The notes under the pieces were generated by a model. That model was not told the DNA's origin. It saw nothing but the letters and a program-made list of their open reading frames with translations, and searched no databases. DNA of 41,518 bases, taken from IMG/VR virus record IMGVR_UViG_2802429248_000002, one strand, 5' to 3'. The translations under genes were made by a program, and so were the position numbers. Of this stretch, positions 3,148 through 21,992 are shown piece after piece (within the stretch, counting starts at the first letter, position 1; each line of letters opens with the position of its first letter). The DNA is from a virus. Taxonomy: Duplodnaviria > Heunggongvirae > Uroviricota > Caudoviricetes.

Positions 3148-3376
3148 AATGAACACCGTTTATTACGCATAACAATCTCCTTACTATTGAAGATTCACAC
3201 ATAATAAACCATTTAAGGATAATAGTTACCTCAAAACGCTGTATTTCTACCTTCTACGGCAATGAAAATTTCGTTCAGAAAATGGTCTAGTGTACCTCTC
3301 AGTCACAATTAAAGAAGAAAGAAGCCGAACTTACTTCGTAATAAGCAAGCCGGCTACTAAGATTAATCCTCAATAT

Positions 3377-6133
3377 TTAGCTACTTTCAAGCATTGCAAG
3401 ACGTGATTCTATTTTTTCGATTCTTCTACGCAAATAAGCTGACTCAAGCCATAAACACTGGTCAGTACGGATACCCCACCTATTTCCAGCCTTGCAAACC
3501 AGAGTTCGCTCTTCTGTTTCGTATTCTTCTTCCATCTCAATTTCGACGCCATCCACAACTTTAGTGATCATCCTTACCGCCATCACTGGCGCGTATTTAT
3601 CATCCCATTCATCGTAACAGAGAAGGCCAAATCTGGTTCCATCAATCCCATGCGCGAGGAAAGTGTCTCTCACTTGTTGTGCTATAACACCAAAATGCCA
3701 GCGGGCACCATCTCCCTTTTCCCTGACGGCATCAAGCCAGCGAAAAGCTACAATCCTGATATCTCCCCATGCATCCAGAATTGCATCACCTTCATAACCA
3801 CGAGACATATACAAGCTGAGCTCACTTGTACTAATCGGTTCACTTTTTTCTCTACCATCTGATGTGTTTATCGAACCGTTCGCAGAATAAACCTGTGCCC
3901 ATCTAAATGATGGTGCACCAAGAGATTTGCTGTTATCAATAATTGGTGAAAAATTACCTTTAATAGCAATATTTCCAGAGTCGCCGAATATATTAATAAC
4001 TGCAGAGTCATCACCATGGTTTTTTACGCTTAAGTTTCTTGATGAAATATTTATATCTTTGTTATATCCACTAACATTAATCCATCTTTTACCATCAATG
4101 TGATACCCGTAAATATTTCCGTTTGATTGTTCGTCAGGTGACTCTCTAAGAACAATAGCATCTACTCCAGACGACCATTGTATTTTTGTATCTGTAGGCC
4201 TCCAGTTCTTTATAATGAACGAACCATCAGTAAACTCCGTTTTTATTTGTCTATTGTCTACAAATGCGTCTCTTGGTTTAAACTCACTTGTGTTAACGCT
4301 GCTCTGAAGATCAGAAGCAAAAAATCTAAGATTTCCTGTATAACCCTTAGTCTCGGTCAGGTTATACGCAATCATAATTCCATTTTCAAACTCAGATGAT
4401 GTTATTTTAACATCACGGCAATCACCAAAAATGCAATTTCCTTTATCAAATGTTGTTTGAGCTTTGAATTTATCAAACCTTAAATTACGAACAGGGAAAC
4501 CATCAACCTCTAATGCAAAGGATGCAGGAAGGCCAAAGTATTCTGATGGCTTACCTGATGTATGATCAAGAGTAGTGGCTACTGTATTCTCAAAAACAGT
4601 CCCGCTAAAATTATTACCAATTGACGGAAACCTGATTACACTTATTGTACCTTGTATTTCAGGAGAAATACCAGATAGTGTGATGTTAGCTCCATCAAAT
4701 GATGCATCTGAATACGTATATACTGATTCACTGCCAGCAATTTTAAACTGTTTAACTGAAGTTATTCTCATCGACTTTTTATGTTTAAATGTCACTGAGC
4801 TTTCAGTATTACTTACAAGATCAATCTGAGGGCTATTCCTTATCGCGATCCCTGACTGGACATAAACGTTATTAAAGTGCGTTTTTTCAGGATTTCCCTT
4901 CATTGAAAGGCTCCCGTCATTTTCTGTCAGTAGTAGTCCTTTTACCCTCCAATAGCCGACAATCTGTACGTTATCAATAACTGAATCACAGCTATCGTAT
5001 ACATGCAACCCTATATCCCAGTCATCACCCAATGAATAAGAATCAGGGTTATTGTATCCTTCAATACCATTTTTACTTACCATTATTCTCAGGTTGCGTA
5101 ACTGTGATGCCCTGTTGATACTAACAGCTACGCTCATGGCTTTTGGTGTAGCAGGAGTAACACCTACAGAATCTTCATTTGTAAACTCAGTGAACTTACA
5201 AGATATCCCTTCAACAATTTTAACTGGTCTTTCATTAGAGATGTTAAAAAAATATTTGTTTTTTTCTCCATCACCAGTAAATACAAGATGGGTTCCTTTA
5301 CTCCAACTTTTTAATAATCTTTCAGGCGCTGGTCTATATGTATCCCAATAATCAATGCCATCACCAATTAAAGACACTCCAGGAGGCACATCTATGTTCT
5401 TAGAAATCATCCATTTACCTGCAGGTATTCTAACGACACTTGCACCAGAATTTATCGCATTAATTAACCATTCAGACGCATCAACTTCAAAATTTAATGC
5501 AGCATATCTTTGCTCAAACGGAACAAAATCAAGAGCGTTAACGTTATCCCGCATCTTATCCTGGAACGTTCGGTATACTGCTCCAGAACCATACTGAATA
5601 AACCAACCAAAACCACCAACAACTCCGGCGATTGCAGCATCAACATAATTGCGCATTGATCGATTATTTACAGCATCCTGCTCAAGTGATGGATCTGCAA
5701 GGTTAGAAATTTTGTTTTGCTTTGCATCGTAATATTTTGCAAGCAAAGATGGTTTCATCAATGCACGTCTGAACCATCCAAAACATTGCTGGATCAGCAT
5801 CGTCAGATAGTCAAAGGCATCTTCATGCACCTCGGGGAAAAATTTTCCCTGATTACGAAGATCAGTCTCCTGCACCACATCAAGCACACGATCTATCGTA
5901 ATTCGCCATCCAGCAGCAAGCGGCGACGGAAGAACAACAGAACCGCCACTATAAGTGCCCGCCCCTGTTACCGTATAACCGGTATCCAGAACCAATTCTG
6001 TTACGTTCCCGTTCAGGTCAGACACCTGAACAACCAGGTCGGATTTTTTGAAAATACGGAAGGTATACGGAAATGATGTCGTAGCTCCGTTACCTGTGTA
6101 TTCGTTGTGGTCAACTTCGGTTGAGACCGTCAT
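3377..6133 (-). CDS. Tailspike protein with C-terminal intramolecular-chaperone-like domain
   Basis: 918 aa. N-terminus MTVSTEVDHNEYTGNG..TSFPYTFRIFKKSDLVV resembles the conserved particle-binding head of epsilon15/phiV10-type tailspikes (memory). Central region is Asn/Ser/Gly-rich as in beta-helix depolymerases. C-terminal ~150 aa (..TSDGREK..) resembles the self-cleaving chaperone domain (peptidase S74-like) of endosialidase-type tailspikes. Confidence 0.8.
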   Translation of the reverse strand: MTVSTEVDHNEYTGNGATTSFPYTFRIFKKSDLVVQVSDLNGNVTELVLDTGYTVTGAGTYSGGSVVLPSPLAAGWRITIDRVLDVVQETDLRNQGKFFPEVHEDAFDYLTMLIQQCFGWFRRALMKPSLLAKYYDAKQNKISNLADPSLEQDAVNNRSMRNYVDAAIAGVVGGFGWFIQYGSGAVYRTFQDKMRDNVNALDFVPFEQRYAALNFEVDASEWLINAINSGASVVRIPAGKWMISKNIDVPPGVSLIGDGIDYWDTYRPAPERLLKSWSKGTHLVFTGDGEKNKYFFNISNERPVKIVEGISCKFTEFTNEDSVGVTPATPKAMSVAVSINRASQLRNLRIMVSKNGIEGYNNPDSYSLGDDWDIGLHVYDSCDSVIDNVQIVGYWRVKGLLLTENDGSLSMKGNPEKTHFNNVYVQSGIAIRNSPQIDLVSNTESSVTFKHKKSMRITSVKQFKIAGSESVYTYSDASFDGANITLSGISPEIQGTISVIRFPSIGNNFSGTVFENTVATTLDHTSGKPSEYFGLPASFALEVDGFPVRNLRFDKFKAQTTFDKGNCIFGDCRDVKITSSEFENGIMIAYNLTETKGYTGNLRFFASDLQSSVNTSEFKPRDAFVDNRQIKTEFTDGSFIIKNWRPTDTKIQWSSGVDAIVLRESPDEQSNGNIYGYHIDGKRWINVSGYNKDINISSRNLSVKNHGDDSAVINIFGDSGNIAIKGNFSPIIDNSKSLGAPSFRWAQVYSANGSINTSDGREKSEPISTSELSLYMSRGYEGDAILDAWGDIRIVAFRWLDAVREKGDGARWHFGVIAQQVRDTFLAHGIDGTRFGLLCYDEWDDKYAPVMAVRMITKVVDGVEIEMEEEYETEERTLVCKAGNRWGIRTDQCLWLESAYLRRRIEKIESRLAMLESS

Positions 6134-6238
6134 GTTAAATCTCCAGATAGTCGCAGCACCCGTTGCGCCGCATATCTGGTTATTCTATTACCTGAAAAAC
6201 CACATATGGATAGAAAGACTGTAAATACGAACAGATAT

Positions 6239-6291: not shown

Positions 6292-6307
6292 CTGTATAAA
6301 TATACAG
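6292..6307. promoter_or_regulatory. LexA box (SOS box) CTGTATAAATATACAG
   Basis: Perfect CTGT-N8-ACAG with AT-rich spacer, flanked TA..TT (TACTGTATAAATATACAGTT, 6290-6309). Sits 22 bp upstream of ATG 6329 and overlaps a TTGATA -35-like hexamer (6286-6291). Confidence 0.75.
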
Positions 6308-6328: not shown

Positions 6329-6586
6329 ATGCAGCAGTATCACTATCCACTGGAAGACGGATTTACCGAAAGGATTCACACGCCGGGAGGCGTCAGGTCA
6401 CTGGTGGAGGGATCGCACTTGATGAAATTACTCCGGGATCTCGATAAGGATGGATTTAATGTCGATGGCCCACTTGCCGAACTGACTGCACTGATTAACT
6501 ACGTCACCAGCTCACAGATGTCTATGCGGGATCTGCAAACACATCTCGACTATTGTGCCGAACAATTACGAAAACAAACCCGGTAA
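6329..6586 (+). CDS. Small SOS-regulated protein, antirepressor C-terminal-domain-like (Tum/Ant-like candidate)
   Basis: ATG 6329 with GGAG 8 nt upstream; 85 aa. About half its residues match the C-terminal ~80 aa of the Bro-N protein at 7732-8418 (shared LxxDG.DV.G..AELT...........RD.QTH). Confidence 0.6.
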   Translation: MQQYHYPLEDGFTERIHTPGGVRSLVEGSHLMKLLRDLDKDGFNVDGPLAELTALINYVTSSQMSMRDLQTHLDYCAEQLRKQTR

Positions 6587-6608: not shown

Positions 6609-7337
6609 CTATCGTTTCGCTTTGTGCTCATCCCAGCACGTTTTGCACCATGCCATTAAGCCGTCCGCATTTTGATTATTAGGGTAAAAGCTGGTTCGTT
6701 TTCTGCGGACATTACAAATTGGGCACCACTTCATATGGCGTGTATTCTTTGGGCCATCGAGACACCTTGCACACCATTTAGTCAATCCATCTGGATTTTT
6801 TGACGATTTCCTGAATTTTTCATATGGAAGGTTTATTCTGCATCGCAAGCACTGCTTGCTACCACTTGAAACTCTGTTAGCTGATTCTTCTTTTGGCGGC
6901 GATACAGAAGGTATTCTTGCTGGCTCTGATATTGCCTGAGGTGCTTTTTTAGATGACTGAGACGATATGTCATCACCAGGGAATCTTCCATGATATGCCG
7001 GACGCGTTGACACTCCAGGTGGAATCTCAGCTGTAAACGGCTTTGGCTGAATCAGTTGCCTCTCTTTTGCTAACTCCTGCTGTTTATAATATGTCTGGAT
7101 TACCGCACTATCATAAGCAGGAGGTGCGGAAATATTAGGCGCATTACCTCCAGTTTTTTGAAACTGAGTAGAGGTGTGTTCTATCACCTGTGTACGATTA
7201 ATCGTTATCTCCCCATCTTCGGTCTTTATCGTTTTGTTATGATTAACGACCGTACGATCAGAGATCTTAGTCTTGTTCTGGTTGATAACGTAAATAATCA
7301 CCGCAACCACACCAACAACTATCCAGAAAACTTCCAT
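6609..7337 (-). CDS. Membrane-anchored protein with tandem Cys-rich (zinc-ribbon-like) C-terminal repeats, unknown function
   Basis: 242 aa. N-terminal TM helix (EVFWIVVGVVAVIIYVI), Pro/Ser-rich linker, then two repeats of CxxC..(F/Y)..DGL..WCxxC. Operator palindrome about 20 bp upstream of the start codon. Confidence 0.55.
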   Translation of the reverse strand: MEVFWIVVGVVAVIIYVINQNKTKISDRTVVNHNKTIKTEDGEITINRTQVIEHTSTQFQKTGGNAPNISAPPAYDSAVIQTYYKQQELAKERQLIQPKPFTAEIPPGVSTRPAYHGRFPGDDISSQSSKKAPQAISEPARIPSVSPPKEESANRVSSGSKQCLRCRINLPYEKFRKSSKNPDGLTKWCARCLDGPKNTRHMKWCPICNVRRKRTSFYPNNQNADGLMAWCKTCWDEHKAKR

Positions 7338-7357
7338 TGCTTTTCCTCACAATAACA

Positions 7358-7465
7358 TTACCTTAAAGGTAATATCTTGCTTTCAGGTGATCAAGCGTTA
7401 AACGCAATCAACCAAATACGGTTGATTTTAATGTTTCTTCGCGCTTATCATTACCTTTACGGTAA
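7358..7465. promoter_or_regulatory. Two operator palindromes (TTACCTTAAAGGTAA 7358-7372; TTACCTTTACGGTAA 7451-7465) in the divergent region between 6609-7337 and 7732-8418
   Basis: On the minus strand TTGATC-17 bp-TACCTT precedes the first palindrome, giving a promoter whose -10 is overlapped by the operator. A TTGATT (7422-7427)-17 bp-TTATCA (7445-7450) plus-strand promoter abuts the second palindrome. Confidence 0.5.
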
Positions 7466-7558
7466 ATTTACATAGCACTCCTCTTGTGCCATAGTAATCG
7501 GGCACTGGCAAAATCCAGTGCCGGGATTGGCGTCCCGGATTACTACAGAGGCACATAT

Positions 7559-7578
7559 GCCGCATAAGCGGTTTTTTT
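7559..7578 (+). terminator. Short intrinsic terminator/attenuator-like hairpin in the leader of the Bro-N gene
   Basis: Stem GCCGC (7559-7563), loop ATAA, GCGG, then seven T (7572-7578); preceded by an 8-bp stem hairpin GGCACTGG-CAAAAT-CCAGTGCC (7501-7522). Confidence 0.4.
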
Positions 7579-7731
7579 ATGTGTAAAGCGCACCTATTCT
7601 ATGGTGGGCTGTGTGGGGGCACCGAAAGGTGCGCCGGGTCCTTTGTAGCCGGTTACGCCAACCCTGCACAGTTCACCACCAACCGATTGGCGTCGGTAGT
7701 GGTGATTAACCTAACTACAAAGGTGATCACT

Positions 7732-8418
7732 ATGACTGCTAACGTAACCCCATCTGTTTTTCATTTTGAATCAGAAGCAACCATTCGAGCCATTGTTATT
7801 GATGGAAATCCTTGGTTTGTTGCCAAAGACGTTATTAAAGCTCTTCAACTGACAAACCCCACTATGTCAATAAAATCTCTTGATGATGATGAAAGGGCTA
7901 AATTTAACTTAGGCCGTCAAGGCGAAACCAATATTATCAACGAGTCAGGCCTCTACACACTGATCCTCCGCTGCCGCGATGCGGTGACACCAGGCACTAT
8001 CCCATACCGCTTTCGTAAATGGGTTACAGGTGAGGTTCTTCCTCAGATCCGCCGCACCGGAAGTTACATTAAAAACTCGCTCCCGCAAGAAGAACGCATA
8101 AAGATGGTTGCCGACCAGGTAGCCAACGCCACAGCATCAGCAGTGATGCAGGCAATGAAGATAGAGAACAAAACCTACAGCGCCCCACTAAAGCCCGGCT
8201 ACCGCAGTCTGATTCACTCGCCGTCTGGTGTTCTCGGCCTGACGGAGAACTCACTGCTGATGAATCTGCTGAACCAGTTACAGGACGACGGGCACGACGT
8301 ATCGGGCGCGGCGGCGGAGTTGACCACCATGTTCTGCTACATCGTCGGTGTGAACAAATGCCTGCGTGATATCCAGACGCACGCGGAGTACATCAACGAC
8401 AAAGCAGGGTTCTTCTGA
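7732..8418 (+). CDS. Bro-N domain protein with antirepressor-like C-terminal domain
   Basis: Start taken at MTANVT (ATG 7732, aaaggtga upstream); the longer track ORF begins in a structured leader. N-terminus (FHFESEATIRAIVIDGNPWFVAKDVIKALQLTNP) matches the Bro-N signature; C-terminus is paralogous to the 6329-6586 protein. Confidence 0.7.
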   Translation: MTANVTPSVFHFESEATIRAIVIDGNPWFVAKDVIKALQLTNPTMSIKSLDDDERAKFNLGRQGETNIINESGLYTLILRCRDAVTPGTIPYRFRKWVTGEVLPQIRRTGSYIKNSLPQEERIKMVADQVANATASAVMQAMKIENKTYSAPLKPGYRSLIHSPSGVLGLTENSLLMNLLNQLQDDGHDVSGAAAELTTMFCYIVGVNKCLRDIQTHAEYINDKAGFF

Positions 8419-8898: not shown

Positions 8899-11373
8899 TT
8901 ATTGCGGAGTGACATCCTGAGGTCGCCACCAGTATGTCTGGTTAAACTCTTTCTTCGAACGTTGCTCCATTTTACGCAAATAGCCTGGTGAAAAATACTC
9001 CTGCATCTGGTTAAAGATCATATGATCGAGAGCCGCCTTCAAGTACCAGAGATTCGCACCTGGCATCAGCCCCTTCCCCAGCTTAACCAGATCACCACCA
9101 GTCTGCTCACTCTTCCCTTCCACAGCATTTAGCGGTATGCCCTGAGCTATCTTCACTACGTCATCAACCAGACCAGCTACCGGGCCAAGCATCGACGCCA
9201 GCGCGCCGCTCCCGTACCTAGTGTGGTCAGAGAAAAGAAAATCACCGTACAACCCAGCCCCGCCACCTTTTAAAAATGCATTTATCCAGAATTTAACCAT
9301 GTGGTCACCGGTCATTTCCTTTGGATTTCTCCCATTAATAAGATCAGTAATCTGCATGGAAAGAGCACCAAGCATGGTTGTGCTTGCTAAAAACGTTGCT
9401 ATATATGCTGCACGCCCACCAGCAGACGGCATACCCATAGCGCGTGACCAGTGACGCATAACAACCGAGATAGGGAACGATTTAAACAGGAAAACACTTC
9501 TCGTTAATTCACCTTTCCATGTTCCACGCTGAAGACCAGACCCTACGAACATCTGCTCACGTGCGCCCGGTGTAATAACAGCCATATCAACTTCTTCAGT
9601 TACGGCACCGAGCAGTTTACGCATTGCCTCAAATTTCACGCGTTCAGGCTCACCAAGATGTTTAACTGCTGAATCAGGGATACGCATAATGCTTTCCGGT
9701 GTCAGCATCGTATTATTACCGTTCCCCCAGTCCTCCTGTTGCGCCAGCTTCCATACGCTCCAGTCTGTGTCAGTAATCCCTTTACTTTTCAGGATACGAA
9801 AATCAGAGTCATCGAGGCTACGAAGGTCTGGTGTCCGTGACACTACTTCTCCCAGGCTTCCCATCATGGTTACGCCATAGGCGCGCTTGTGCGCATCTGA
9901 CCATGCTGTAAGCCCACTGGCACGCATTACCGCCGTTGCCGCCCAACGAGACACAGACGGCCCCATATTATCCATCGCCCAGCGGTTAACGCTGCCAAGT
10001 AGAGATTCCATCGCCAGGCCAGCGCGGCGCGCCCGCGCAAGCTCAGTACGGTTCGTTGGGTCCATAGCTTCAAGCTGGTTGCGAAATAACTGGTTCATTG
10101 GAAGGTTGGTAACCTTCGCAGACAGATACATGGTTCCAAGATCAGAGAACGATGACAGCAACGCGGATCCGAGTCTGCTGGCAACCAGCCAGTTGCGGAT
10201 ATTGTCAGACCATCGCGCGATGTGCGGATTCGCTACAGGCTGTGTTTTTCCGGAAATAAAGTTGTACAAGTTCTCTGTTTTGTTCGCCAGACGCTCGACG
10301 CTACCGGTTTTACTCGGGTTAGCTGTTGCCGTTTCTGCCTTAACCTGATCAAGAAGGGAGCGGAAAACATGATCGGGGTTTGGACCATATGTTTCCACCA
10401 GAGCAATATCTTTACTGATACCTTCCAAGTGACCGACCATGATTTCCCATAGAGAGCGATCACCATAAAGTTGTTGATATTGGAGATAGGAATCTGCATC
10501 TTTGAAATGTATCTGTCGTGATGCATTACCACGGTTAGCACGTGCGCCGGAAATTCGCATTCCGGTATCAGTAAGCTTATTCAGCCCACCAGTAGCGATC
10601 GTGTTATAAGCCTCTCCAAGAAATGCAGACAACTCGGCATCGTTCATCAGTTGTCCATCGGCTCGGGTATAATATTTGCGATCCAGCTTACCTATAACAT
10701 CGCCAACCCACTTATCCTTTGATACCGCCCCAACCTTTTCCATAGAATGATGTTGAGGGATCCCCCAGTTTTCGAGATAGCCAATGTCCCCACCAGCATC
10801 ATTAAACCGGCGGCGCAGCAGCTCTGTAACTTCTCTCCACGCCTTAGCACCTTTTCTTGCTTTAGCATTGCCAGTATTTTGCCCCCGCATTTCATATACC
10901 AGGTCACGTACGCCCGCTTCATCTTCAAACAGACCAAAAAAGCGAGGATCAACTGCTTCGAATGCCTCCTGCAATTGACTCAATGCATAATCACGGGTGG
11001 CTTTTGTTCTGGATTCAACAGAGAGGAAATTAGATTTACCGTCTGCATTAAAAGCTATAGTACGGTTAAGAGCTCCAAGTTTCCCATCAGCCCCTTGATA
11101 GCTATTGATAAATTTATCCAATCTCTGACGCGCGGCTATAGTGAGAGCCACACGACGTTTCTTTAATGCCGCTTCTCGCTGTAATTCTTCAGATGCCAAT
11201 TGTGCTGCTCGATATAGCCGCTCTGATTCGGAAAGTTGTCTCCACGACATCGGGTCATCACGAGCAATGGAGCGCATATTTCGATAAATGCGGTCTTCAA
11301 TGTTCTGTATTTCTCGCGCCGTTAACGTGCGCTGCGCCGCCTGCTGGACCGCTTGTATACATTCCTGTCTCAT
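8899..11373 (-). CDS. Large internal virion (core/ejection) protein, gp16-like by position
   Basis: 824 aa, last large ORF of the internal-protein series preceding the tailspike module; assignment by size and synteny only. Confidence 0.5.
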   Translation of the reverse strand: MRQECIQAVQQAAQRTLTAREIQNIEDRIYRNMRSIARDDPMSWRQLSESERLYRAAQLASEELQREAALKKRRVALTIAARQRLDKFINSYQGADGKLGALNRTIAFNADGKSNFLSVESRTKATRDYALSQLQEAFEAVDPRFFGLFEDEAGVRDLVYEMRGQNTGNAKARKGAKAWREVTELLRRRFNDAGGDIGYLENWGIPQHHSMEKVGAVSKDKWVGDVIGKLDRKYYTRADGQLMNDAELSAFLGEAYNTIATGGLNKLTDTGMRISGARANRGNASRQIHFKDADSYLQYQQLYGDRSLWEIMVGHLEGISKDIALVETYGPNPDHVFRSLLDQVKAETATANPSKTGSVERLANKTENLYNFISGKTQPVANPHIARWSDNIRNWLVASRLGSALLSSFSDLGTMYLSAKVTNLPMNQLFRNQLEAMDPTNRTELARARRAGLAMESLLGSVNRWAMDNMGPSVSRWAATAVMRASGLTAWSDAHKRAYGVTMMGSLGEVVSRTPDLRSLDDSDFRILKSKGITDTDWSVWKLAQQEDWGNGNNTMLTPESIMRIPDSAVKHLGEPERVKFEAMRKLLGAVTEEVDMAVITPGAREQMFVGSGLQRGTWKGELTRSVFLFKSFPISVVMRHWSRAMGMPSAGGRAAYIATFLASTTMLGALSMQITDLINGRNPKEMTGDHMVKFWINAFLKGGGAGLYGDFLFSDHTRYGSGALASMLGPVAGLVDDVVKIAQGIPLNAVEGKSEQTGGDLVKLGKGLMPGANLWYLKAALDHMIFNQMQEYFSPGYLRKMEQRSKKEFNQTYWWRPQDVTPQ

Positions 11374-11378
11374 TTAAT

Positions 11379-13181
11379 TTAACCTCTCAAGAAACACGCC
11401 ACAGCGACATCAAACAGGCTGGAATCCTGTATTGCCTGCTCACTTTCCCTGTTCGCTTCATCCAGTACTTCACGCGCGCTGCGCGATTGTGGATTACCAT
11501 CATCATCCAGCACGGTGATTATCATGTCCGGATATTCAAGCAGCGAGTCTTCAGCTATACGCAGATCAATATCTCCTGCCGGATCTGCCATCATTTTTTG
11601 TTCTGTCTGTTGCAATATCTTACCGGGCTCAAAAGGAGCTACTTCGTCTGGCGTCCTGACCTCTGCTGTTTTATAGAATGAAACAGCCTGAGCATTAAGT
11701 TCACTTTCTGCCTGCTGTCTCCGAGCCAGTTCTGCTCGAGCTTCAAAAAACTGACCGCCAGGCTCATGCGGTGCCAACGCGTTACGGGAAAATTCCAGGC
11801 GTTCTTGTGCCTGCCGGATTCGTTGGTCAATATCCCGAAGTCTGGCCTGTTTATCTGATCGAGCACGAGACAAAGCTTTACCGCTACCGGTTGGCTCTTC
11901 TGCAAGAATTTGTGCGCGCTGTTCAGTGAGATTTTCAATAATTCGTTGGCTATTAGCGATTTCAGACTGGTAAACCTGTCTATCGCCACGAGGCAAAAGC
12001 TGCGCAGCCTGTTCTTCAAGCAACCGATTTTCGATAGCGCGCGCCGTTACTCCATCATCTACAGATGACAGAGCCTCATTAACTGCCTGAGACAGCAGAT
12101 TCTTGCGCCCAGGAATTTCACTGAAAGATGCAGACTCAACAATGCTGGCTACGTCTACAGGTCTCCCCTGGCTAACATCAGACATGGCTTTTCGCAGAGC
12201 CTGAATGTGCGAATTACGCGAAAGCACGTTGATCGGCACGCCGGGAGCAATATCAATTTCAGCATGATGAGCGGCATTCGCCGCCAGTGCAGCATCGACA
12301 TCAACTGGTGAAAAATTTGGTGCGCTTGTAGACTCGCCGCGAGAGTTAATAAATCTGCCGACACCACCAAACGCCACCCCAAGAACAGCATCAATAGCAA
12401 TTGCCTGTCGATCCAACACATCATACTGGTTAGCCATTTCGCTATAGCCACCATCACGAAGCGTTTTTGCAGTAAGCCCACGCTGTGCCATACCGAACGC
12501 AATATTTGTACCTGCGGCATAGGCAATATCTGGCGTTGCACGTACTGCTGTTGCTGCGGCGCGTCGCACTGAACTTTCACCCGTCCGCGCAAGCTGAGCC
12601 GCCACACCTTCCGCCAGCGCACCACCAGCACGTAACCCGAGGCTCATAGGGATCAGTGTTCCGGCACCAGCAGTAATACCCTGCACTAATCCCGCTTCCT
12701 GCGCCGCCCTGAAATCAACCCCCTGTGCTGTCAGCCGTTCAAACTCAGAAAAACCCTGTAGCGAAGTTACCGCCGCTGCACCTCCGACCGGACCACCGAG
12801 CGTTGTACCGACAACAGCCTGCCCGCCCATATCGAACAACCCATAAAGAACCTGCCCGGCGGTTCCGGTTGTCGCGGCATCAGGCGTCAGCCGCTTAACC
12901 TGCTGCTCTGCTAGTTTTCTCTGCTCGGCAATGTATGAAACTGAAGTATCATTGAGCGAGGTGTTTTCGTTAATAAACTGAGCAATCGGGGATACGATTT
13001 TATCCATCCCTGCCCATAGCAACTGATCTGGCTTTGCCACCAGCCCGGAGTACAAACCAGACAATGCCGCTCCTACAGCATTGTCGAAAAAACCAACATC
13101 GCTGTTAAAGCCCGCTGGATTTGATGCTGCTTCGTCAAGTTGCTGATTCTGGTTTACTGGATTAAGGCCAAAGTAACTCAT
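11379..13181 (-). CDS. Internal virion protein (Ala/Gly-rich), function unknown
   Basis: 600 aa; Ala/Gly-rich central region; synteny between the gp15-like and gp16-like ORFs. Confidence 0.5.
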   Translation of the reverse strand: MSYFGLNPVNQNQQLDEAASNPAGFNSDVGFFDNAVGAALSGLYSGLVAKPDQLLWAGMDKIVSPIAQFINENTSLNDTSVSYIAEQRKLAEQQVKRLTPDAATTGTAGQVLYGLFDMGGQAVVGTTLGGPVGGAAAVTSLQGFSEFERLTAQGVDFRAAQEAGLVQGITAGAGTLIPMSLGLRAGGALAEGVAAQLARTGESSVRRAAATAVRATPDIAYAAGTNIAFGMAQRGLTAKTLRDGGYSEMANQYDVLDRQAIAIDAVLGVAFGGVGRFINSRGESTSAPNFSPVDVDAALAANAAHHAEIDIAPGVPINVLSRNSHIQALRKAMSDVSQGRPVDVASIVESASFSEIPGRKNLLSQAVNEALSSVDDGVTARAIENRLLEEQAAQLLPRGDRQVYQSEIANSQRIIENLTEQRAQILAEEPTGSGKALSRARSDKQARLRDIDQRIRQAQERLEFSRNALAPHEPGGQFFEARAELARRQQAESELNAQAVSFYKTAEVRTPDEVAPFEPGKILQQTEQKMMADPAGDIDLRIAEDSLLEYPDMIITVLDDDGNPQSRSAREVLDEANRESEQAIQDSSLFDVAVACFLRG

Positions 13182-15691
13182 TGCGGAATATCTCCGGAGA
13201 ATCTCTGACGCTTCTGTGTCAGATCAAGAACAACAGGAGAACCATCATCTTTCAGCAGATAACCAGTACCAAGTTTCACCAGGTACTGACTATCGCCGTA
13301 ACTTTGCAAACCATACTGACCAGGCGGTGTTTTTATCCCGGTGCCGACAACTTGTTCATTCCAAGCCTGATTAACCTGCTTATCGAATTGCTCTGCAGAC
13401 ATTCCCCACGGCAAAAGGACATTCCCCATTCCGTTATAGTCATGCACGCCACCTGTAGCTACGTTAACAGCCTGTTTCCAGATATCATTGTCAATTTCGC
13501 CTGATACCACGCCTTTTTTCGCCATCACACCAGCGTAATAATCCTTTGCGATCTCGTATGCCATTGATGCGCCCTGAGCGTCACCAGCAAATGCATCCTT
13601 CACCATGTCAGAAAACTCAAGGCGAAGATCAGCATCTTTAGGCATCGGAATACCTTTCGCATCATCAGTACCTTTACGAGCCGCCGCGCCAGCAAGAATT
13701 GTCTGCGCAGCGGTTTCAGGAGACACGGAAACATCCGGATTAAACCAGTTTTTTTCTGCCAAAATACCACCAGGCTTATCCATCAGTATCCCGGCAACGG
13801 CAGCAGATGGAGCGTTGGCACTGATCTGCTGTAGTGCTGACATATACACCTGCCCACCACCAGTGCTCTGCCTGATGGTATCGAGATATGCTGCCTGTTG
13901 GGAAACTGGAGCATCACGAAAGAAAACACCGATCTGATTGGCCTCGTCTTTGGAAAAGAACGTCAGTGGAGTGCCATATGACTTAGCAAGGTCACTGACC
14001 TGAGCGGCACGCAAGGCAACGCTCTGTCCAAAGTTATCCTTATTGCTCATGTCGATAGGCTTTGCCTGTCCGGAGGCAAGAGAGAACTGCACAGGATCCG
14101 ACTGCCGCTGCTTTATCACCTGATTTGCAGCCGAAACAACGTTGTCATAAAGAGTTGCGCGTGCCGCATACCCCTCCCCTGTATCACCAGTATCCGGGCG
14201 TAATTGCTCAACATATGCTGTAATGCTGCTTGTCGGCATGTTGCGGAAAGAGCCTATATACTGTCCGGCGATCTGCGTATTCTTAAACTCGGTATATCGC
14301 AGGTTTCCTTCTCTGACTCCATAAGCTGCAATAAAATCATCCTCACCAGGTGGGTTAGGAAATTCAATGCCACGCATATACGCAGCCGTCGCATCGCGAA
14401 CCCGGCTGTCGAGCATCGTTTTATATTCAGCCTGCTGTTGTCTGGCTAGTGCATCAGTCTGTCGCAACACGCTGGCCTGATCTGATTCACTTAAAGCATC
14501 GAACCAGGCTACACCGGTATAACGTTTATTTTTTGTCGGTAGCTGAGAAAGCCCCAGCGCAGCACTAACACCTGCAGTTAACTGCTGATCACTGTATGGC
14601 TGGCTACCGTTTTCATGATGGATAATGGCTGCACAAAGCGCCTTCAGGGTATCAGGATTTGATGCATCGAGAGGCTCATCAGCAGAAACGCCAAGTTGTT
14701 CGCACACTGCTTTGATATACGACATAGTGTCATTTTTATCAGTAGGCGGTGCCCAGCGATTAATTATCTCGCTGACGGTATCAATACCCTGCCGCTGATA
14801 CGACATCAGGTTCCGCCCTAATGCACGAATACCGTGTTCAGGGGTTTCGAATTTGGCAAAGCGACCATCATCACCAGTCTGCCCAACCCACGGATTAGTT
14901 TTGCTGTATTCAAGATTGCCGGGGTTATTGTTGCGTATACCGCGGGTACGATCGGAAGAGCCACTATCTGCTACAGCACGGCGAGAACCAGCAGCAGTAT
15001 CGCTTAACTCGCCGTTTTGCTGTCTTACCTGAAGATAGTTTGCTCCAATAGCATTTTGAGCAGTTGCTTTTGCTGTTGCTTCTTTAAACTCGATTTTCTT
15101 GGCCTGGATTTGCTCGTCACTCCAGCCATGTGCAATGCCGTAATCCTCAATTTGCTGGAAAGTTTGCTTATTAGCCAATACGTATGCGGCGTTGTCGCCA
15201 TACAATGCTGCGGCATTTTTACCATTGTTCAGCAGCGTCGCCTGAAACTGGCCTTCTTCGTAGGCATTTATTTGCCCTATCTCGTGCCGCCCGGCCTGCG
15301 TAGTGAACTGAATACGCTGCTGCTGCGCCTGCTGCATGAAAGCATTACGAGCCTGTTCATCCGGCAGCGACATAGCCAGTTGTTCGACCTGAGCATCAAA
15401 CTGCTGCGTATACTCCTGACCTTTTCCAATAGCATTTTTCCCTTTCAGGTTAAGCAAACCTGTTTCAGGGTTATTCAGCAGATCGCTGCTTATCTGGCTT
15501 AAGCTAAGAGAAGCATCCTGAGCCATAGCAACATTCGCACGCTGTTTTGCCTGCGCAATAATACCTGCATATTGCTCTGCAACATCGCCAAGTACATCAC
15601 CGACATTTGGTGTCTGAAACGATGAGAATCCCTGCGTCGAAATCCCTCTGCTTTGAACCTGACGGCCCGATGTTGTTGGTACAACTGGCAT
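13178..15691 (-). CDS. Internal virion protein, gp15-like by position
   Basis: 837 aa; overlapping stop/start with neighbours; contains a GIRNNNPGNLEY...FAKFETPEHGIRAL segment that may be a cell-wall-acting domain (uncertain). Confidence 0.5.
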   Translation of the reverse strand: MPVVPTTSGRQVQSRGISTQGFSSFQTPNVGDVLGDVAEQYAGIIAQAKQRANVAMAQDASLSLSQISSDLLNNPETGLLNLKGKNAIGKGQEYTQQFDAQVEQLAMSLPDEQARNAFMQQAQQQRIQFTTQAGRHEIGQINAYEEGQFQATLLNNGKNAAALYGDNAAYVLANKQTFQQIEDYGIAHGWSDEQIQAKKIEFKEATAKATAQNAIGANYLQVRQQNGELSDTAAGSRRAVADSGSSDRTRGIRNNNPGNLEYSKTNPWVGQTGDDGRFAKFETPEHGIRALGRNLMSYQRQGIDTVSEIINRWAPPTDKNDTMSYIKAVCEQLGVSADEPLDASNPDTLKALCAAIIHHENGSQPYSDQQLTAGVSAALGLSQLPTKNKRYTGVAWFDALSESDQASVLRQTDALARQQQAEYKTMLDSRVRDATAAYMRGIEFPNPPGEDDFIAAYGVREGNLRYTEFKNTQIAGQYIGSFRNMPTSSITAYVEQLRPDTGDTGEGYAARATLYDNVVSAANQVIKQRQSDPVQFSLASGQAKPIDMSNKDNFGQSVALRAAQVSDLAKSYGTPLTFFSKDEANQIGVFFRDAPVSQQAAYLDTIRQSTGGGQVYMSALQQISANAPSAAVAGILMDKPGGILAEKNWFNPDVSVSPETAAQTILAGAAARKGTDDAKGIPMPKDADLRLEFSDMVKDAFAGDAQGASMAYEIAKDYYAGVMAKKGVVSGEIDNDIWKQAVNVATGGVHDYNGMGNVLLPWGMSAEQFDKQVNQAWNEQVVGTGIKTPPGQYGLQSYGDSQYLVKLGTGYLLKDDGSPVVLDLTQKRQRFSGDIPQ

Positions 15692-15703
15692 CTTATTATC
15701 CCC

Positions 15704-16243
15704 TTATCGACCGGTTGGAGTGCCAACAGCAGCAGAAATCGGCGCAGCTTTCTGAGAGAACGGGCTCCACGTTCCGCCGCCCATCTGGTATGCACCGTAT
15801 GCTTTTAGTGGTGCCGTTAACAAAGTGCTGGTCATCGATGATTTAGCAGCCGACTGAGCAGCAGCCCCCTGTGCCTGAGCATTCATTCCCTGAACCTGAT
15901 ACCCATATGCCTCACGCTGAGCATTATTCACTGTCGTTAACGCATCAAGAGTGCCGAACTGAGCATTATCCGCAAAAACGTCAAGAGCTGTTCCGCTACT
16001 TAATTCCGCACCGGTAGCCCCCATAGTGGCCGCCGCAGTGCCTGAGCGTTGACGCATTTCACGACGACGCTGATCCGCTTCAATATTCCCACGATTGATT
16101 GAATCCTGTGCCTGAGCTTCAGCAATTTCAGCATTCCGATCAGCTATGGCTGACTGGTATTTTGCCTGCTTGCTCTGGCTGTACATTGACGCGGCTGTGG
16201 ATGCCACTGTGACGGCAACCAAAGCGATGGCTGGGTTACACAT
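15704..16243 (-). CDS. Internal virion protein, gp14-like by position
   Basis: 179 aa, Ala/Gln-rich, N-terminal hydrophobic segment; synteny. Confidence 0.45.
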   Translation of the reverse strand: MCNPAIALVAVTVASTAASMYSQSKQAKYQSAIADRNAEIAEAQAQDSINRGNIEADQRRREMRQRSGTAAATMGATGAELSSGTALDVFADNAQFGTLDALTTVNNAQREAYGYQVQGMNAQAQGAAAQSAAKSSMTSTLLTAPLKAYGAYQMGGGTWSPFSQKAAPISAAVGTPTGR

Positions 16244-16707
16244 TATTTTCTCTCCATGTGAAATCTGTGGAAATTAAGACCAAGAGCACCATAAGGCGCG
16301 GCTTCTTCAAGCCTGAATCCAAGCCAGTGCAGCCATGCTTTGGCAACATGGTTTCGCTCGTCGACGTAGTTTTCCAGGCGCGGATAAACTGCCAGCATCT
16401 GCTGCAATACAGGGCGGCAGTGGCGAAGAAATGTCTTCTGATATTTTTCAATACGGCTGGTTCCTACCAGCCAGGGCGTACCATTGCCACCGATCATTGA
16501 CGCCGGAGATACGCCAAACATGGTTACCAGTTCTCCGTTCGCAAATCCTGACCAGGCCATAGTCGCAGTACGCAGACCAACACGCAGCGCATCTTCGGTA
16601 GTCATCAGCGATACCGCATACAGTTCGTCAATATCAGCCTGACGAACATCCGGCAAAATCATCTGAAGATGCTCTTCGGTAGCGGGAATAATTTGAACGT
16701 CGATCAT
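16243..16707 (-). CDS. Hypothetical virion-associated protein (gp13-like position)
   Basis: 154 aa ORF coupled by start/stop overlap between the tail tubular B-like and gp14-like genes. Confidence 0.4.
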   Translation of the reverse strand: MIDVQIIPATEEHLQMILPDVRQADIDELYAVSLMTTEDALRVGLRTATMAWSGFANGELVTMFGVSPASMIGGNGTPWLVGTSRIEKYQKTFLRHCRPVLQQMLAVYPRLENYVDERNHVAKAWLHWLGFRLEEAAPYGALGLNFHRFHMERK

Positions 16708-19178
16708 CAGAATCCCCCAACAGTAAGGCGAGGAATAACGGCAAGAACAGACAGCGGCAACGGATCAAGCTGACGGATTTTTACACGTCCGTTTTTGCCC
16801 CAGTTACTGTCCAGTTTCACTTCTACTTTTCCGGTAGCATCATCAACAGGATCATCGTAGAACTCGAATTCACGCTGTGGATATTCGTACCATTTACCGC
16901 CGGGCGTAGTCGCCCAGATGCCGCGACTGGCATTCACAACCAGAGTAACGGAGGGGATCACCTGTTTTTTGTCCAGCAGCGTTTCCTGTCCGTTAATGTT
17001 GATATCCAGTGTTTCGAATTCAGCAGTTATTGGCAGGCCGATGTGCACTACAGCCCCCGGAGATTCCAGCGTGACGGCACCTCCGGAAACCACTTTCTGT
17101 GGTTCCACGTTCGCATCAGAGAGAATGTTTACGGTCTGGCCTTCAAGATGAGACAGGCCTCCAAATGTCCGGCGCGCCATCTGCCAGTTCGTGGTGGCCA
17201 CATTCCTGAGGGATGGCGGGACGTTCCTGTTAGCACGAACCACTACAGCGGTATTGCTGGTTACAGAAATAATGTCGCAACGTAATTCTTTTGACACTTC
17301 ATCGCCAGTATCAGGATCAGTTCCGGTATAAGGGAACTGTAGTTGCGCGCCGACATCACTACTGGTGAAGTACGCACCACCAGAAACACTGATTGTATAT
17401 TCCGCACGGTAATCCCATTCACCAGAACCACCAGTGATGGTCATCGTTCTGTCAGACGTATTTCTTCCATCATAGCTAAGGCCAGAATCAACAAAGAAAG
17501 CATCTTCATCGCTGGTAAATAAACGGCTGGACAGTCGCTCTATGTATCTCACTGTTTGCCCGTTAACGGTTCGGTTAACGACGAAATACACCGCATCTTC
17601 ATTGCCTTCGCTGATACTGCATGTGCTTTCATATTTTCCGGTACTGGATTGTGGTGCCCATGCAAAAACCTGCTGATCACGCAAATAGGTCATCACCAGT
17701 AATTTACCGTCATCACGAATGCAGAAGGCGCTGGAGTAAGGGACAATCGAGAAGCACCAGTCAACAATGCTGTGCTTCTGAAAAAGATGATTGGCAAGGA
17801 TGGTCAGGTCGTTCCCCTGATAGCCGTCAACATCGAATGAGTAGGCCAGATCACGGACAACACTGCCTTTCTCCTGGACGAACAGAGCAATATTCGCCAC
17901 GGCAATTGGTGGGACATTGCTCGAGCCATTTGATCCCTGAGAGCTGAATGCAAATGATGATGGGGTAAGCACTTTGTTCTGGTCGCCAGTGATGACGTAC
18001 TCACCTCCGGAAGTCAGCGCCACCAGCGAACCAACATCAATCAGGTGACGGATCTCATTAACCTGACGCCCGGCATAGGTGTAGATAATTCTGTCGTCAT
18101 CCTGCGTAGGATTGCTTTTGCCAAAATCCTTATAATCCCCGGTACGGCTGGCCCAGATAGTCTGAGGGAACGCAGTCGATGCGGCGAAGTAAAGGCGTTG
18201 TTGATAATAAACAACAGTGCCAGGATAACCGTTAATACTGTTCCAGGCATATTTAGCCCATTTATAGCTGGCATTATCCTCGCCAACTACCTGCGAAGGG
18301 ATATAGGAAATCACCTCGGCAGTTGCAGTAGTTCCATTTGCAGCAGAGATACGGGCAATGCCAAAACCACTGTGCAGATACTCCCACTCAATGCCGGTAT
18401 CATCATCACCGGATCCGCCCCAGCCATCCCATGATGTGCCTTCTGTATGCGAAGGGCGCAAAGTGCCTGTTTTGCCTGCTGTAACGGCGCGATAGTAGTT
18501 ACTGTCTGCACGGCGAATATCGCCAATCGACGTACTCTTACTGGTTTCCCATACCGGCACAGAATCCACTGCAGGCTGTTCCAGATAGAACAATTTGCCT
18601 ACCTGCTCCGCGCCAAAAATTGAGGCGCTTGCCGTTAACGTAATTGTCCCGGTGCTGGCGCTGGCATAAACCGTCACTGACTCGTCAATATTGATATCTT
18701 CAAATGGCCCGTTCTTCGTTACCACATCAACCAGTTGCCAGTTGTCATGCGCATAGCGGCGCAACTCTTTCGGCGGGTATGCCGGATGAACCAGCGTAAG
18801 CACGTCTGCGCTTTGCGTGAATTTAATTCGGAACAGATCGGCTTCAGTATATGGCGTGGCAATTTCATAAATAACATTGCTGCTATTCAGCACCAACGCA
18901 CCATCTTTGATAACGCGCATGTACTGGTGTCCGAACTCCAGAGCATAAGTCTGAACCGTCGAGAACTGGAACGGGATCAGGCGGCATTTCCGATTTGGGT
19001 ATTTGGCGGCACCGACAAAACGCGTACCAGGTCGATTCTCAACGCCGCCATACTGCCGCACGATAAAGTTATCGCACTTGCGCAATGCCACCTGGTACTT
19101 CGCCATGTCAATACGCCCGTACAACGACGGTCCAATCTCACCACCGGCAAAGCTGGGCTGGATCCAACTGATAGCCAT
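16707..19178 (-). CDS. Tail tubular protein B-like (nozzle)
   Basis: 823 aa; size and position after a ~200-aa tubular-A-like gene as in T7 gp11/gp12; weak N-terminal similarity from memory. Confidence 0.55.
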   Translation of the reverse strand: MAISWIQPSFAGGEIGPSLYGRIDMAKYQVALRKCDNFIVRQYGGVENRPGTRFVGAAKYPNRKCRLIPFQFSTVQTYALEFGHQYMRVIKDGALVLNSSNVIYEIATPYTEADLFRIKFTQSADVLTLVHPAYPPKELRRYAHDNWQLVDVVTKNGPFEDINIDESVTVYASASTGTITLTASASIFGAEQVGKLFYLEQPAVDSVPVWETSKSTSIGDIRRADSNYYRAVTAGKTGTLRPSHTEGTSWDGWGGSGDDDTGIEWEYLHSGFGIARISAANGTTATAEVISYIPSQVVGEDNASYKWAKYAWNSINGYPGTVVYYQQRLYFAASTAFPQTIWASRTGDYKDFGKSNPTQDDDRIIYTYAGRQVNEIRHLIDVGSLVALTSGGEYVITGDQNKVLTPSSFAFSSQGSNGSSNVPPIAVANIALFVQEKGSVVRDLAYSFDVDGYQGNDLTILANHLFQKHSIVDWCFSIVPYSSAFCIRDDGKLLVMTYLRDQQVFAWAPQSSTGKYESTCSISEGNEDAVYFVVNRTVNGQTVRYIERLSSRLFTSDEDAFFVDSGLSYDGRNTSDRTMTITGGSGEWDYRAEYTISVSGGAYFTSSDVGAQLQFPYTGTDPDTGDEVSKELRCDIISVTSNTAVVVRANRNVPPSLRNVATTNWQMARRTFGGLSHLEGQTVNILSDANVEPQKVVSGGAVTLESPGAVVHIGLPITAEFETLDININGQETLLDKKQVIPSVTLVVNASRGIWATTPGGKWYEYPQREFEFYDDPVDDATGKVEVKLDSNWGKNGRVKIRQLDPLPLSVLAVIPRLTVGGF

Positions 19179-19786
19179 CAGGACAACCTCGCAATGGTAA
19201 ACTCATCAACCGGTGGCTGTGGTTCCTGTGATTCATTCTGGCTATGCGAGCCAGCACTAAGAATCACGCGATTGTACATATTGAGGGCAAACGTACCGAG
19301 GTCTGCATTCCCAGTCAGCGCCATGTTAATAGCTGCCGCAAGACGCCAGGCCAACGCCTCCATAAAAATGGCATCAAACATGTTCACATCTGAAACGCGA
19401 GAGACATACTTGAGCCATGCCTGCGGCTGGTCTGTGTAGATCAACTTTCCTGTTCCGTTGGTGTCTGCACCAACTTCGTACTGAACGCGCATTGCTGCTG
19501 TTGGATTGCGTACACCAGGAAGCATAATTTCAGTAATGCGCAGACAATCGGACGGGTACTGGTACGCATATTCCCAGTCAGGCGGTGGATTGTTCGTATC
19601 TGCAAGCGCCACGCGTTTGGTAGCAAAGTTCCAGTCAAAATCAGAAAGCACAGCATCACGGCAGGCCTCAAAGTGCAGCGAACATTCCCCTGCTTCCTTG
19701 CTGGCTTCCGTCAGGCTGTTAATGCTGCGGCTGTTGCCAATATTGGACAGCGCACGATTACAGATCTCTACTACAGAGGCCATCAC
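19178..19786 (-). CDS. Tail tubular protein A-like (adaptor)
   Basis: 202 aa; N-terminal pattern (CNRALSNIGNSRSINSLTEAS) resembles T7 gp11 (memory); synteny. Confidence 0.5.
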   Translation of the reverse strand: MMASVVEICNRALSNIGNSRSINSLTEASKEAGECSLHFEACRDAVLSDFDWNFATKRVALADTNNPPPDWEYAYQYPSDCLRITEIMLPGVRNPTAAMRVQYEVGADTNGTGKLIYTDQPQAWLKYVSRVSDVNMFDAIFMEALAWRLAAAINMALTGNADLGTFALNMYNRVILSAGSHSQNESQEPQPPVDEFTIARLS

Positions 19787-20112
19787 TCACCCCCGTTACC
19801 GTAGAGGGTTTCAGCCGCTGATTTTTCTACATCACCGGAAACAGGAGCGATTGCCATATCAGTGATCTGCAGATCGGCGCTGCGATTAACACCATCGTCA
19901 GTTTCTCTGGCAGACAGGCCTCGAATAACAGCCTTTGCAGTTATCATCACTTCTGTTCCGACGCCCTGAGGTTGCGCCTTCAGCTTATTCAATGTGTCGT
20001 TATTAAGAGTGATGCACAGCCCCCACGGGTATTCATCGCGAGTTCTGGTTTCTCCGCTCTCATCCTGGTAGCTGTCAGTGCCGGTTTTGAGGTTTACGAG
20101 TTCCATATACAC
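19783..20112 (-). CDS. Hypothetical structural protein
   Basis: 109 aa ORF within the tightly packed structural operon. Confidence 0.4.
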   Translation of the reverse strand: MYMELVNLKTGTDSYQDESGETRTRDEYPWGLCITLNNDTLNKLKAQPQGVGTEVMITAKAVIRGLSARETDDGVNRSADLQITDMAIAPVSGDVEKSAAETLYGNGGE

Positions 20113-20156
20113 TCCTGCAATAAAGGGGCCGAAGCCCCTTGTCGGATTCGCGAGGC

Positions 20157-20501
20157 TTACACGCCCAGTTCTTTACGCTTATCTGCGATCTTCTCGCGGA
20201 GCGTTTCGGCTTTAGCGTTATGGTGTGGCTTCTCGTTAAAGAGCAATTCGTACTCTTCACGGAGCTTATCCAGTTCACCATCATCTGACACATCATTGAT
20301 GATTTTGGTGCTGGTTGCTGCCATTGACACCTTTCCTGCAACTTTTGCTTTTGCCTGTCTGGCTGCATCGTTAACAGGTTCCAGTGCGCTACCAGGCTCA
20401 CCTTCGTATTCGATTTCTGCCCCCTCCGGCCACAGAGTGTTATGGATATGAGAGAGGCGCAGAACGCGGTATCTTGGTTTCTCACCTGACATCGATATCA
20501 C
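20157..20501 (-). CDS. Hypothetical structural protein
   Basis: 114 aa ORF within the structural operon. Confidence 0.4.
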   Translation of the reverse strand: MISMSGEKPRYRVLRLSHIHNTLWPEGAEIEYEGEPGSALEPVNDAARQAKAKVAGKVSMAATSTKIINDVSDDGELDKLREEYELLFNEKPHHNAKAETLREKIADKRKELGV

Positions 20502-20502
20502 C

Positions 20503-20940
20503 TTAACCAGTTACTTTTGAGCGGATCGGATACGGCGTATTGGCATCAACATCAAGGCTGATACCAGCAGAGAATTCGCCAGCCGTTAGTGGGCCAGTTG
20601 CGACGGAGTAGTTAACACGCAGATATCGCTGAACACCGGCAGGCACCTTTGCAGAAACAACTCGTTTACCTGCTGTCAGGGCGGTCTTTGCCAGTGCGCC
20701 ACTATCATAAATAGTGGTCCATGAGCTGTTATTCTCACTCGTCTGCAACTGGATGTTTACAGTTGCATCACCGCTTGCCGCGGCGGCTGTGTTAACCAGC
20801 GCCCAAAACTCAAGCGGGTAACCCACGCCGATATCACGACGTTTTCCGTCAATTGGACCGAGATCGATTACGTCAGTAGAAGCCGCGGTATCAGTTACCG
20901 CCTGTGCTTCGGAGAACATCAACAGTTTGTCGGTGATCAT
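20503..20940 (-). CDS. Putative capsid-associated (decoration/stapling-like) protein
   Basis: 145 aa, beta-rich, directly downstream of the major capsid gene. Confidence 0.4.
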   Translation of the reverse strand: MITDKLLMFSEAQAVTDTAASTDVIDLGPIDGKRRDIGVGYPLEFWALVNTAAAASGDATVNIQLQTSENNSSWTTIYDSGALAKTALTAGKRVVSAKVPAGVQRYLRVNYSVATGPLTAGEFSAGISLDVDANTPYPIRSKVTG

Positions 20941-20991
20941 CTTCTTTCTCCATTAGTGGGTCTGTTACGACCCACAGGTTAATAACAGGCG

Positions 20992-21984: not shown

Positions 21985-21992
21985 TTCCTCTC

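Follow-up and report, generated by a model that had tools for sequence, protein, structure and literature searches.

The tailspike gene and its three modules

The window analyzed here is a 41,518-nucleotide stretch of DNA from a tailed phage (IMG/VR record IMGVR_UViG_2802429248_000002), and the element under study is a gene for a tailspike near its left end. Positions 3377-6133 of the window are exactly one uninterrupted open reading frame (ORF) of 918 amino acids (aa) on the minus strand, according to the ORF listing and translation. The gene is complete, from the ATG at 6133-6131 to the stop codon at 3379-3377, and encodes a precursor of 102.4 kDa. The protein matches PHROG 1171, "tail spike protein", over its full length (E 9e-300). 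An NCBI protein listed under the generic name "tail fiber domain-containing protein" is 100% identical; its 90%-identity cluster has 654 members. Judged from its sequence, the protein is an ordinary three-part tailspike, with a putative tail anchor, a probable sugar-cutting beta-helix body and a folding domain predicted to cleave itself. Each of the three proposed parts is present, well beyond chance expectation. We are highly confident of this three-module architecture and of the chaperone domain within it. All of the components are of known kinds; modular spikes, S74 domains and swaps of receptor-binding domains (RBDs) are well documented.

Module 1, aa 1-203 (5525-6133, minus strand), is by homology a tail-binding anchor of the epsilon15/phiV10 (Uetakevirus) type. 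It consists of a beta domain (aa 9-82) followed by helical and linker segments that have low confidence in the monomer model. Over aa 1-165 or 1-173 the anchor is 66-72% identical in amino acid sequence to epsilon15, phiV10, SPN1S, TL-2011b and Tyrion; the values are 71.5% for epsilon15 gp20 (aa 1-165) and 68% for phiV10, and beyond the anchor the similarity to these two proteins stops. Against Uetakevirus phages of Escherichia coli the identity is 93-96% over aa 1-203, and likewise 93-96% at the nucleotide (nt) level over nt 1-536, 1-588 or 1-610 in vB_EcoP_ZX5, HEMP4 and phiv142-3. PHROG tail families match aa 1-166 or 1-203 with E values of 1e-97 to 1e-133, and the anchor also matches a solved tail-fiber N-terminus (PDB 28lx/8ck1, E 5.5e-32). 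Pas et al. place the Uetakevirus anchor in the first 205 aa of the phiV10 receptor-binding protein (RBP) (PMC10408124). The gene thus has both marks of a Uetakevirus tailspike, a conserved N-terminal anchor and a place beside the lysis cassette of a Uetakevirus genome. An initial annotation, made without database searches, had described an epsilon15-type head of about 110 residues. The type holds, but the length is larger, about 165 aa as measured against epsilon15 and about 203 aa as measured against Uetakevirus phages of E. coli.

The next segment, aa 204-257 (5363-5524, minus strand), forms, in the model, the cap at the N-terminal end of the beta-helix together with its first rungs; it was delimited by sliding identity, GC content and the secondary structure of an AlphaFold2 model. 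Module 2, the exchanged receptor-binding body, spans aa 258-757 (3863-5362, minus strand) and ends in a stalk just before the predicted cleavage site. AlphaFold2, run with an alignment of 55 sequences, gives predicted local distance difference test (pLDDT) values that exceed 90 at most positions of aa ~190-735, where short strands recur with the period of a beta-helix, so that aa ~204-757 are predicted with high confidence to form a right-handed parallel beta-helix. Asn, Ser and Gly together make up 27.6% of the body, 20.2% of the head and 14.4% of the C-terminal domain. Both the fold and the composition agree with the Asn/Ser/Gly-rich beta-helix body that had been proposed from the letters, and structure prediction, one of the checks named with that proposal, returned the expected result. 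Most structural neighbors of the body are depolymerizing tailspikes. Across 33 body homologs, down to about 41% identity, nine acidic residues are invariant or nearly so: D370, D373, E404, D406, E416, E542, D544, D574 and E583. Pfam model PF12708 is matched by homologs and by the version in a P22-like tailspike (described below), unlike the window protein.

Module 3, aa 759-918 (3380-3859, minus strand), is by homology a Peptidase_S74 intramolecular chaperone with an intact Ser/Lys pair, whose predicted release would yield a fragment of 18.5 kDa. Pfam model Peptidase_S74 (PF13884) scores 40.7 bits over aa 758-829, against a cut-off of 22 (E 3e-10). In HMMER searches the chaperone of the phage K1F endosialidase (PDB 3GW6) matches aa 709-917 with an E value of 4.5e-34, followed by 3GUD (E 1.1e-17) and the T5 fiber 4UW8 (E 2e-08). 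The top six Foldseek matches of the C-terminal domain are all chains of 3GW6 (E 5e-13, template modeling score on the target 0.57-0.61). The predicted autoproteolytic site is the Ser/Lys dyad of S758-D-G-R-E-K763 (3845-3862, minus strand), which with the Thr that precedes it aligns to TA(S911A)NGERK916 of 3GW6; S758 falls on position 911, an Ala in the crystallized mutant, and K763 on K916. Residues S758, D759, K763, H813, G815 and Q819 are each at least 90% conserved across 55 homologs, and the tail spike of phage Pollock has a C-terminus 65.5% identical to this domain. The region has the features of a C-terminal intramolecular chaperone domain, namely the family score, a Ser with a Lys five residues on, and the fold at the extreme C-terminus after a stalk. 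The TSDGREK motif and the autoproteolytic-type chaperone that the initial annotation saw in the last ~150 residues are therefore borne out. By analogy with its relatives, the spike would be expected to trimerize and to cleave itself after Ser758, with computed masses of 83.9 and 18.5 kDa for the two products. S74 chaperone domains occur in endosialidases, in the appendage of the GA-1/phi29 type and in the T5 fiber.

The K1F endosialidase endoNF (3GW6) is the closest comparison for this end of the protein. The C-terminal ~200 aa align, including the cleavage Ser, the Lys five residues on and an HFGVIAQQ block, and the fold is shared. The window spike has a plain beta-helix in place of a sialidase domain, and its anchor is of epsilon15 type rather than T7 type. 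The stalk of the window spike does give a weak match to End_tail_spike (PF12219), in which aa 715-757 cover only the last 43 positions of the model at 18.3 bits, against a cut-off of 25. A match to PDB 4HIZ is confined to aa 720-757. An endosialidase specific for K1 (glycoside hydrolase family 58), suggested by the End_tail_spike match and by the paper on ZX5 discussed below, was considered and rejected, since only the stalk matches and the body is predicted to be a beta-helix.

Exchange of the receptor-binding body

The body is a mobile cassette exchanged between unrelated prophage types of E. coli, Uetakevirus-like and P22-like. The P22-like tailspike that carries it is 824 aa long and has a Head_binding anchor (PF09008) and its own divergent S74 domain, ~30-39% identical to that of the window spike, while the body, aa 258-757, is ~99% identical in both nucleotide and amino acid sequence. 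In one alignment of the two genes, nucleotide identity rises from 27% in the head to ~50% in nt 610-773 and 98.7-98.9% in nt 774-2265, then drops to 39% in the C-terminal domain. The identity breaks at aa ~258 and at the cleavage serine. Base composition follows the same division, with 36% GC in the body (26% at third codon positions), 45% in the head and C-terminal domain and 49% in the whole window. The segment aa 204-257 has the low GC of the body, yet is only about 50% identical in nucleotide sequence to the P22-like version. The initial annotation had named such chimeras as frequent products of recombination, and a body of ~99% nucleotide identity behind a different anchor and before a different chaperone confirms a recombinant origin here.

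Among 5,426 complete E. coli genomes, the sample used throughout, the body was found in 29. The whole gene is present in 13 of them (at least 98.8% identity); in the other 16 only nt ~774-2278 occur (97.8-98.9%), within a gene annotated "phage tailspike protein". Four genomes (OZ040490, E57, Combat2C1 and ECE170) have two copies of the body. The second copy was checked in E57 only (NZ_CP121153.1; 22313-24787 of extracted locus L014). This strain is a double lysogen, with a Uetakevirus-like prophage and, at argW, a P22-like one, both with the body cassette. Because the second copy belongs to the P22-like prophage, the two phage types do meet in one cell.

The head and the C-terminal domain are likewise found with other partners, the latter in the Pollock tail spike mentioned above. 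At 90% identity or more it is attached to other bodies in at least 14 further 90%-identity protein clusters, one of which ends in Peptidase_G2. Related but more distant forms of the body and chaperone occur behind Tail_spike_N, Phage_tail_fib and T7-tail anchors, and in lytic phages. Justusliebigvirus SD2 (SD2000054) is 59.8% identical over aa 211-916 and Vectrevirus DIJ06P1 44.8% over aa 183-915; their anchors and phage families differ from those of the window spike, and at such divergence the specificity may differ as well. Exchangeable RBDs on Uetakevirus anchors, with exchange involving Lederbergvirus, Kuttervirus and Justusliebigvirus, have been described, and the same study noted RBP subtypes inconsistent with O serogroup and suggested a shared receptor (PMC10408124). 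A protein in which a Head-tail_con domain is fused to a related body (P0030) was treated as a possible artefact of assembly or gene calling and was not used.

A separate observation concerns the K14 strain O15_8X (NZ_CM182542.1), which has the body in its P22-like form and also a second epsilon15-type tailspike at 1284277-1286222. The latter is 81.7% identical in nucleotide sequence to the window gene over nt 1-1946, and so represents a diverged relative of the cassette, resident in the same genome.

ORF7 of the temperate Uetakevirus vB_EcoP_ZX5 shares the anchor at 95.6% amino acid identity over aa 1-203, and differs in its body. The architecture described for it (PMC9782041) is of the same class as that of the window spike, with a T7-like tail-fiber domain at the N-terminus, then a middle domain, then an endosialidase chaperone at the C-terminus; the body is called endosialidase-like. 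Epsilon15 gp20 is a beta-helix endorhamnosidase with a beta-sandwich and an SGNH esterase "petal", has no chaperone domain and targets O-antigen (preprint 10.64898/2026.07.31.742079).

Association with the K14 capsule

The receptor was approached from the premise that the spike of a prophage must fit the host that the phage entered. Region 2 of the group-2 capsule locus of one carrier, FDAARGOS_1257, served as the query. It has three genes, encoding an epimerase, a 760-aa protein with glycosyltransferase family 2 and KpsC/S-like Capsule_synth regions, and a hexapeptide O-acetyltransferase. This kps region 2 is present in 108 of the 5,426 genomes, all of which are enumerated by searches with three allele classes (26 + 51 + 31). 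The supplement of PMC12488582 assigns type K14 to eleven genomes that cover all three allele classes, JJ1886, JJ1887, TUM13754, FDAARGOS_1266, C7, C9 and Dog168 among them. Under K14, the kTYPr catalog has an entry (K14_8) for a protein of 761 aa whose N-terminal domain is GT-A, and gives the locus a length of 13.9 kb. The typed genomes and the agreement in gene content with the kTYPr entry together identify the locus as K14.

The K14 region 2 is present in 28 of the 29 genomes with the body, where 0.58 would be expected (Fisher p 1.5e-48, with genomes treated as independent). The epsilon15-type version taken alone gives 12 of 13 carriers (p 2.7e-20). Because the body is almost confined to strains with the K14 locus, K14 is its likely target. 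The signal extends across three allele classes of the K14 locus, both prophage families and at least three O types of carrier, O6, O83 and O25; at least six carriers are O6, FDAARGOS_1257 among them. The body is found in 3 of 35 O83 genomes and in 6 of the 60 O6 genomes listed (of 154 O6 genomes), and every one of these carriers is K14. Specificity for O6 was considered as a candidate and set aside, because carriers are also O83 and O25 and well-known O6 strains that are not K14 lack the body: the O6 strains ATCC 25922 and 536, like the O83 strains LF82 and NRG 857C, are absent from both the list of carriers and the list of genomes with the K14 locus.

The K14 polysaccharide is a polymer of N-acetylgalactosamine and Kdo, partly O-acetylated. 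If this structure is right, K14 has no 4-linked uronic acid of the kind that lyases need, and hydrolase chemistry is then more likely for the body than lyase chemistry. The reference structure came from an O6:K14:H31 strain (Jann et al. 1983).

Prophage context and neighboring loci

The window contains the terminal part of an epsilon15/phiV10-like prophage integrated in the chromosome of E. coli, as indicated by its virion module, by adjoining host genes and by a near-identical GenBank phage record, KM389360, that is classified in Uetakevirus. The virion module, 15.8 kb at 8899-24663, is 96.7-98% identical in nucleotide sequence to phiV10, vB_EcoP_ZX5, HEMP4 and phiv142-3, with phiV10 at 96.7%. 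On the 3' side of the tailspike gene, and on the same strand, lie two holins, an endolysin of glycoside hydrolase family 19 and an Rz-like spanin; beyond them come two genes of the host, yfgI and yfgH. Host chromosome occupies the left end of the window, with ORFs at 1-516 and 532-1074 that are the counterparts of yfgH and yfgI, respectively, of the RefSeq genome that matches. Since host ORFs extend to 1074, the prophage boundary must lie between ~1075 and 1350, just past the gene for the Rz-like spanin.

A Shine-Dalgarno sequence, GGAG, can be read at 6141-6144 (minus strand), 7 nt 5' of the tailspike ATG. Past the stop codon, a probable intrinsic terminator at 3311-3355 (minus strand) consists of a 13-bp stem and then the U-rich run UUCUUUCUUCUUU. 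A simple scan for consensus terminators missed this hairpin; RNA folding revealed it, at -21.2 kcal/mol and z = -3.5 against shuffled sequences.

Two palindromes resembling LexA boxes (CTGT-N8-ACAG; one reads CTGTATAAATATACAG) lie at 6219-6234 and 6292-6307, between the start of the tailspike gene and a divergent ORF. The window has five such LexA-box-like sites against 0.5 expected. The divergent ORF, 85 aa at 6329-6586 on the plus strand, has matches in phrog_450 and in the C-terminal portion of anti-repressors, which suggests that a small antirepressor under SOS control, similar to Tum, adjoins the tailspike gene. Farther on, a 242-aa protein encoded at 6609-7337 (minus strand) matches phrog_6762, and its C-terminal part weakly resembles the endonuclease VII and Lar-like families, with scores below threshold. 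An Ant/BRO-type anti-repressor is encoded on the opposite strand, at 7579-8418 (plus strand). The accessory genes at 6609-8418, between the tail genes and the tailspike gene, form a variable moron region, as the matching RefSeq prophage differs there.

In FDAARGOS_1257 (NZ_CP069480.1; 8001-10757 of extracted locus L002), RefSeq annotates the corresponding tailspike gene as a pseudogene "missing C-terminus" that ends at about aa 825, although all 918 codons are intact. The mosaic C-terminus has probably misled the annotation here.

Discussion

We consider it probable that the gene, taken as a whole, specifies the only tailspike of an E. coli prophage of the phiV10/epsilon15-like (Uetakevirus) kind, with a body directed at the K14 capsule. 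The specificity of the body for K14, which rests on co-occurrence, is likely in its own right, though held a little less firmly. The body is most likely a K14 capsule depolymerase rather than an O-antigen enzyme. In the mechanism we propose, the C-terminal chaperone (aa 759-918) would align three 918-aa chains and template the folding of the trimeric stalk and beta-helix. The Ser758/Lys763 dyad would then cut after Ser758, giving the 18.5-kDa fragment and a stable trimer of 83.9-kDa subunits. The N-terminal ~200 residues would dock the trimer onto the tail hub, and the beta-helix would bind, and most probably hydrolyze, the host's group-2 capsular polysaccharide, K14, allowing the short-tailed virion to reach the outer membrane. 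A precedent exists in the P22-like prophage CUS-3 of E. coli K1, which has an endosialidase tailspike and is a temperate podovirus for which a group-2 capsule is the primary receptor; CUS-3 differs from the window spike in its capsule (K1), its enzyme fold and its anchor.

Several observations count against this interpretation. No Pfam pectate-lyase or glycosidase family matches the tailspike at E values up to 1; of the two domain matches that the initial annotation had anticipated, the chaperone was found as Peptidase_S74 and the pectate-lyase was not. The structural neighbors of the body are only 8-17% identical to it, so they do not by themselves assign catalytic residues or a choice between hydrolase and lyase chemistry. 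For cleavage, trimer formation and activity the evidence is homology, and for K14 it is co-occurrence. One carrier, GF43 (NZ_CP172127.1, from chicken meat), lacks the K14 region 2 at the sensitivity of megablast; it may be a real exception, or a strain whose capsule locus was exchanged or lost once it had become a lysogen. About three quarters of the K14 genomes are without the spike. Finally, some carriers are near-clonal (CREC/CRKP; E20/E50/E67), so the genomes are phylogenetically non-independent, and the association as computed ignores kinship.

Three other explanations deserve consideration. The body might act on O-antigen, as in epsilon15, phiV10 and P22, with the association to capsule a by-product of lineage. 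O-antigen is what the classical spikes of these types cut (for Uetakevirus and Lederbergvirus RBPs, PMC10408124), and at least six carriers do share O6. We regard this explanation as very unlikely in view of the three or more unrelated O loci among carriers and the small fractions of O83 and O6 genomes that have the body, each of them K14. That the beta-helix is a non-catalytic glycan adhesin, or modifies the polymer (as an esterase or an epimerase, for example) rather than cleaving it, is unlikely. The near-invariant acids in the 33 body homologs are typical of a conserved active site, most structural neighbors are depolymerizing tailspikes, and a short-tailed phage needs to cross the capsule. 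What speaks for this alternative is the distance of the body from its structural neighbors, noted above.

The remaining alternative is that the C-terminal domain is kept in the mature spike as a non-cleaving relic, or that the prophage is defective and the gene disused. It draws on the fact that nothing in the analysis shows processing or induction, and on the RefSeq pseudogene call for the FDAARGOS_1257 gene, which is 99.8% identical to the window gene. The ORF is nevertheless intact both in the window and in FDAARGOS_1257, the Ser/Lys dyad and the other conserved positions are kept, the same gene occurs in a GenBank record of a Uetakevirus phage, and the virion module is 97-98% identical to that of isolated phages. 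We therefore judge it highly improbable.

As an object the tailspike is textbook; its practical value lies in the inference of its receptor. Two 2026 surveys place K14 among the top K types in bloodstream infection, and its invasiveness estimate is one of the highest (PMC13171598, PMC13171606). A list of capsule types with known depolymerases in a 2025 paper omits K14, and no report of a K14-specific E. coli depolymerase was found in the literature searched, the coverage of which was incomplete, so that novelty is provisional. The capsule type occurs in sequence types ST131 and ST127 and in other lineages of extraintestinal pathogenic E. coli. The locus illustrates natural exchange cleanly, and its breakpoints, one where the beta-helix begins and the other at the predicted self-cleavage serine, are helpful in designing chimeric spikes. 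The K14 cassette may act on a linkage that no structurally solved enzyme is known to cut. On balance we lean toward the view that it is the first identified E. coli K14 depolymerase, circulating between two unrelated lineages of temperate podoviruses, Uetakevirus-like and P22-like, that are able to share one K14 host, as in E57. If this is true, it could be used as a reagent for typing or as an enzyme against virulence, or supply engineered phages and tailocins with a receptor-binding domain.

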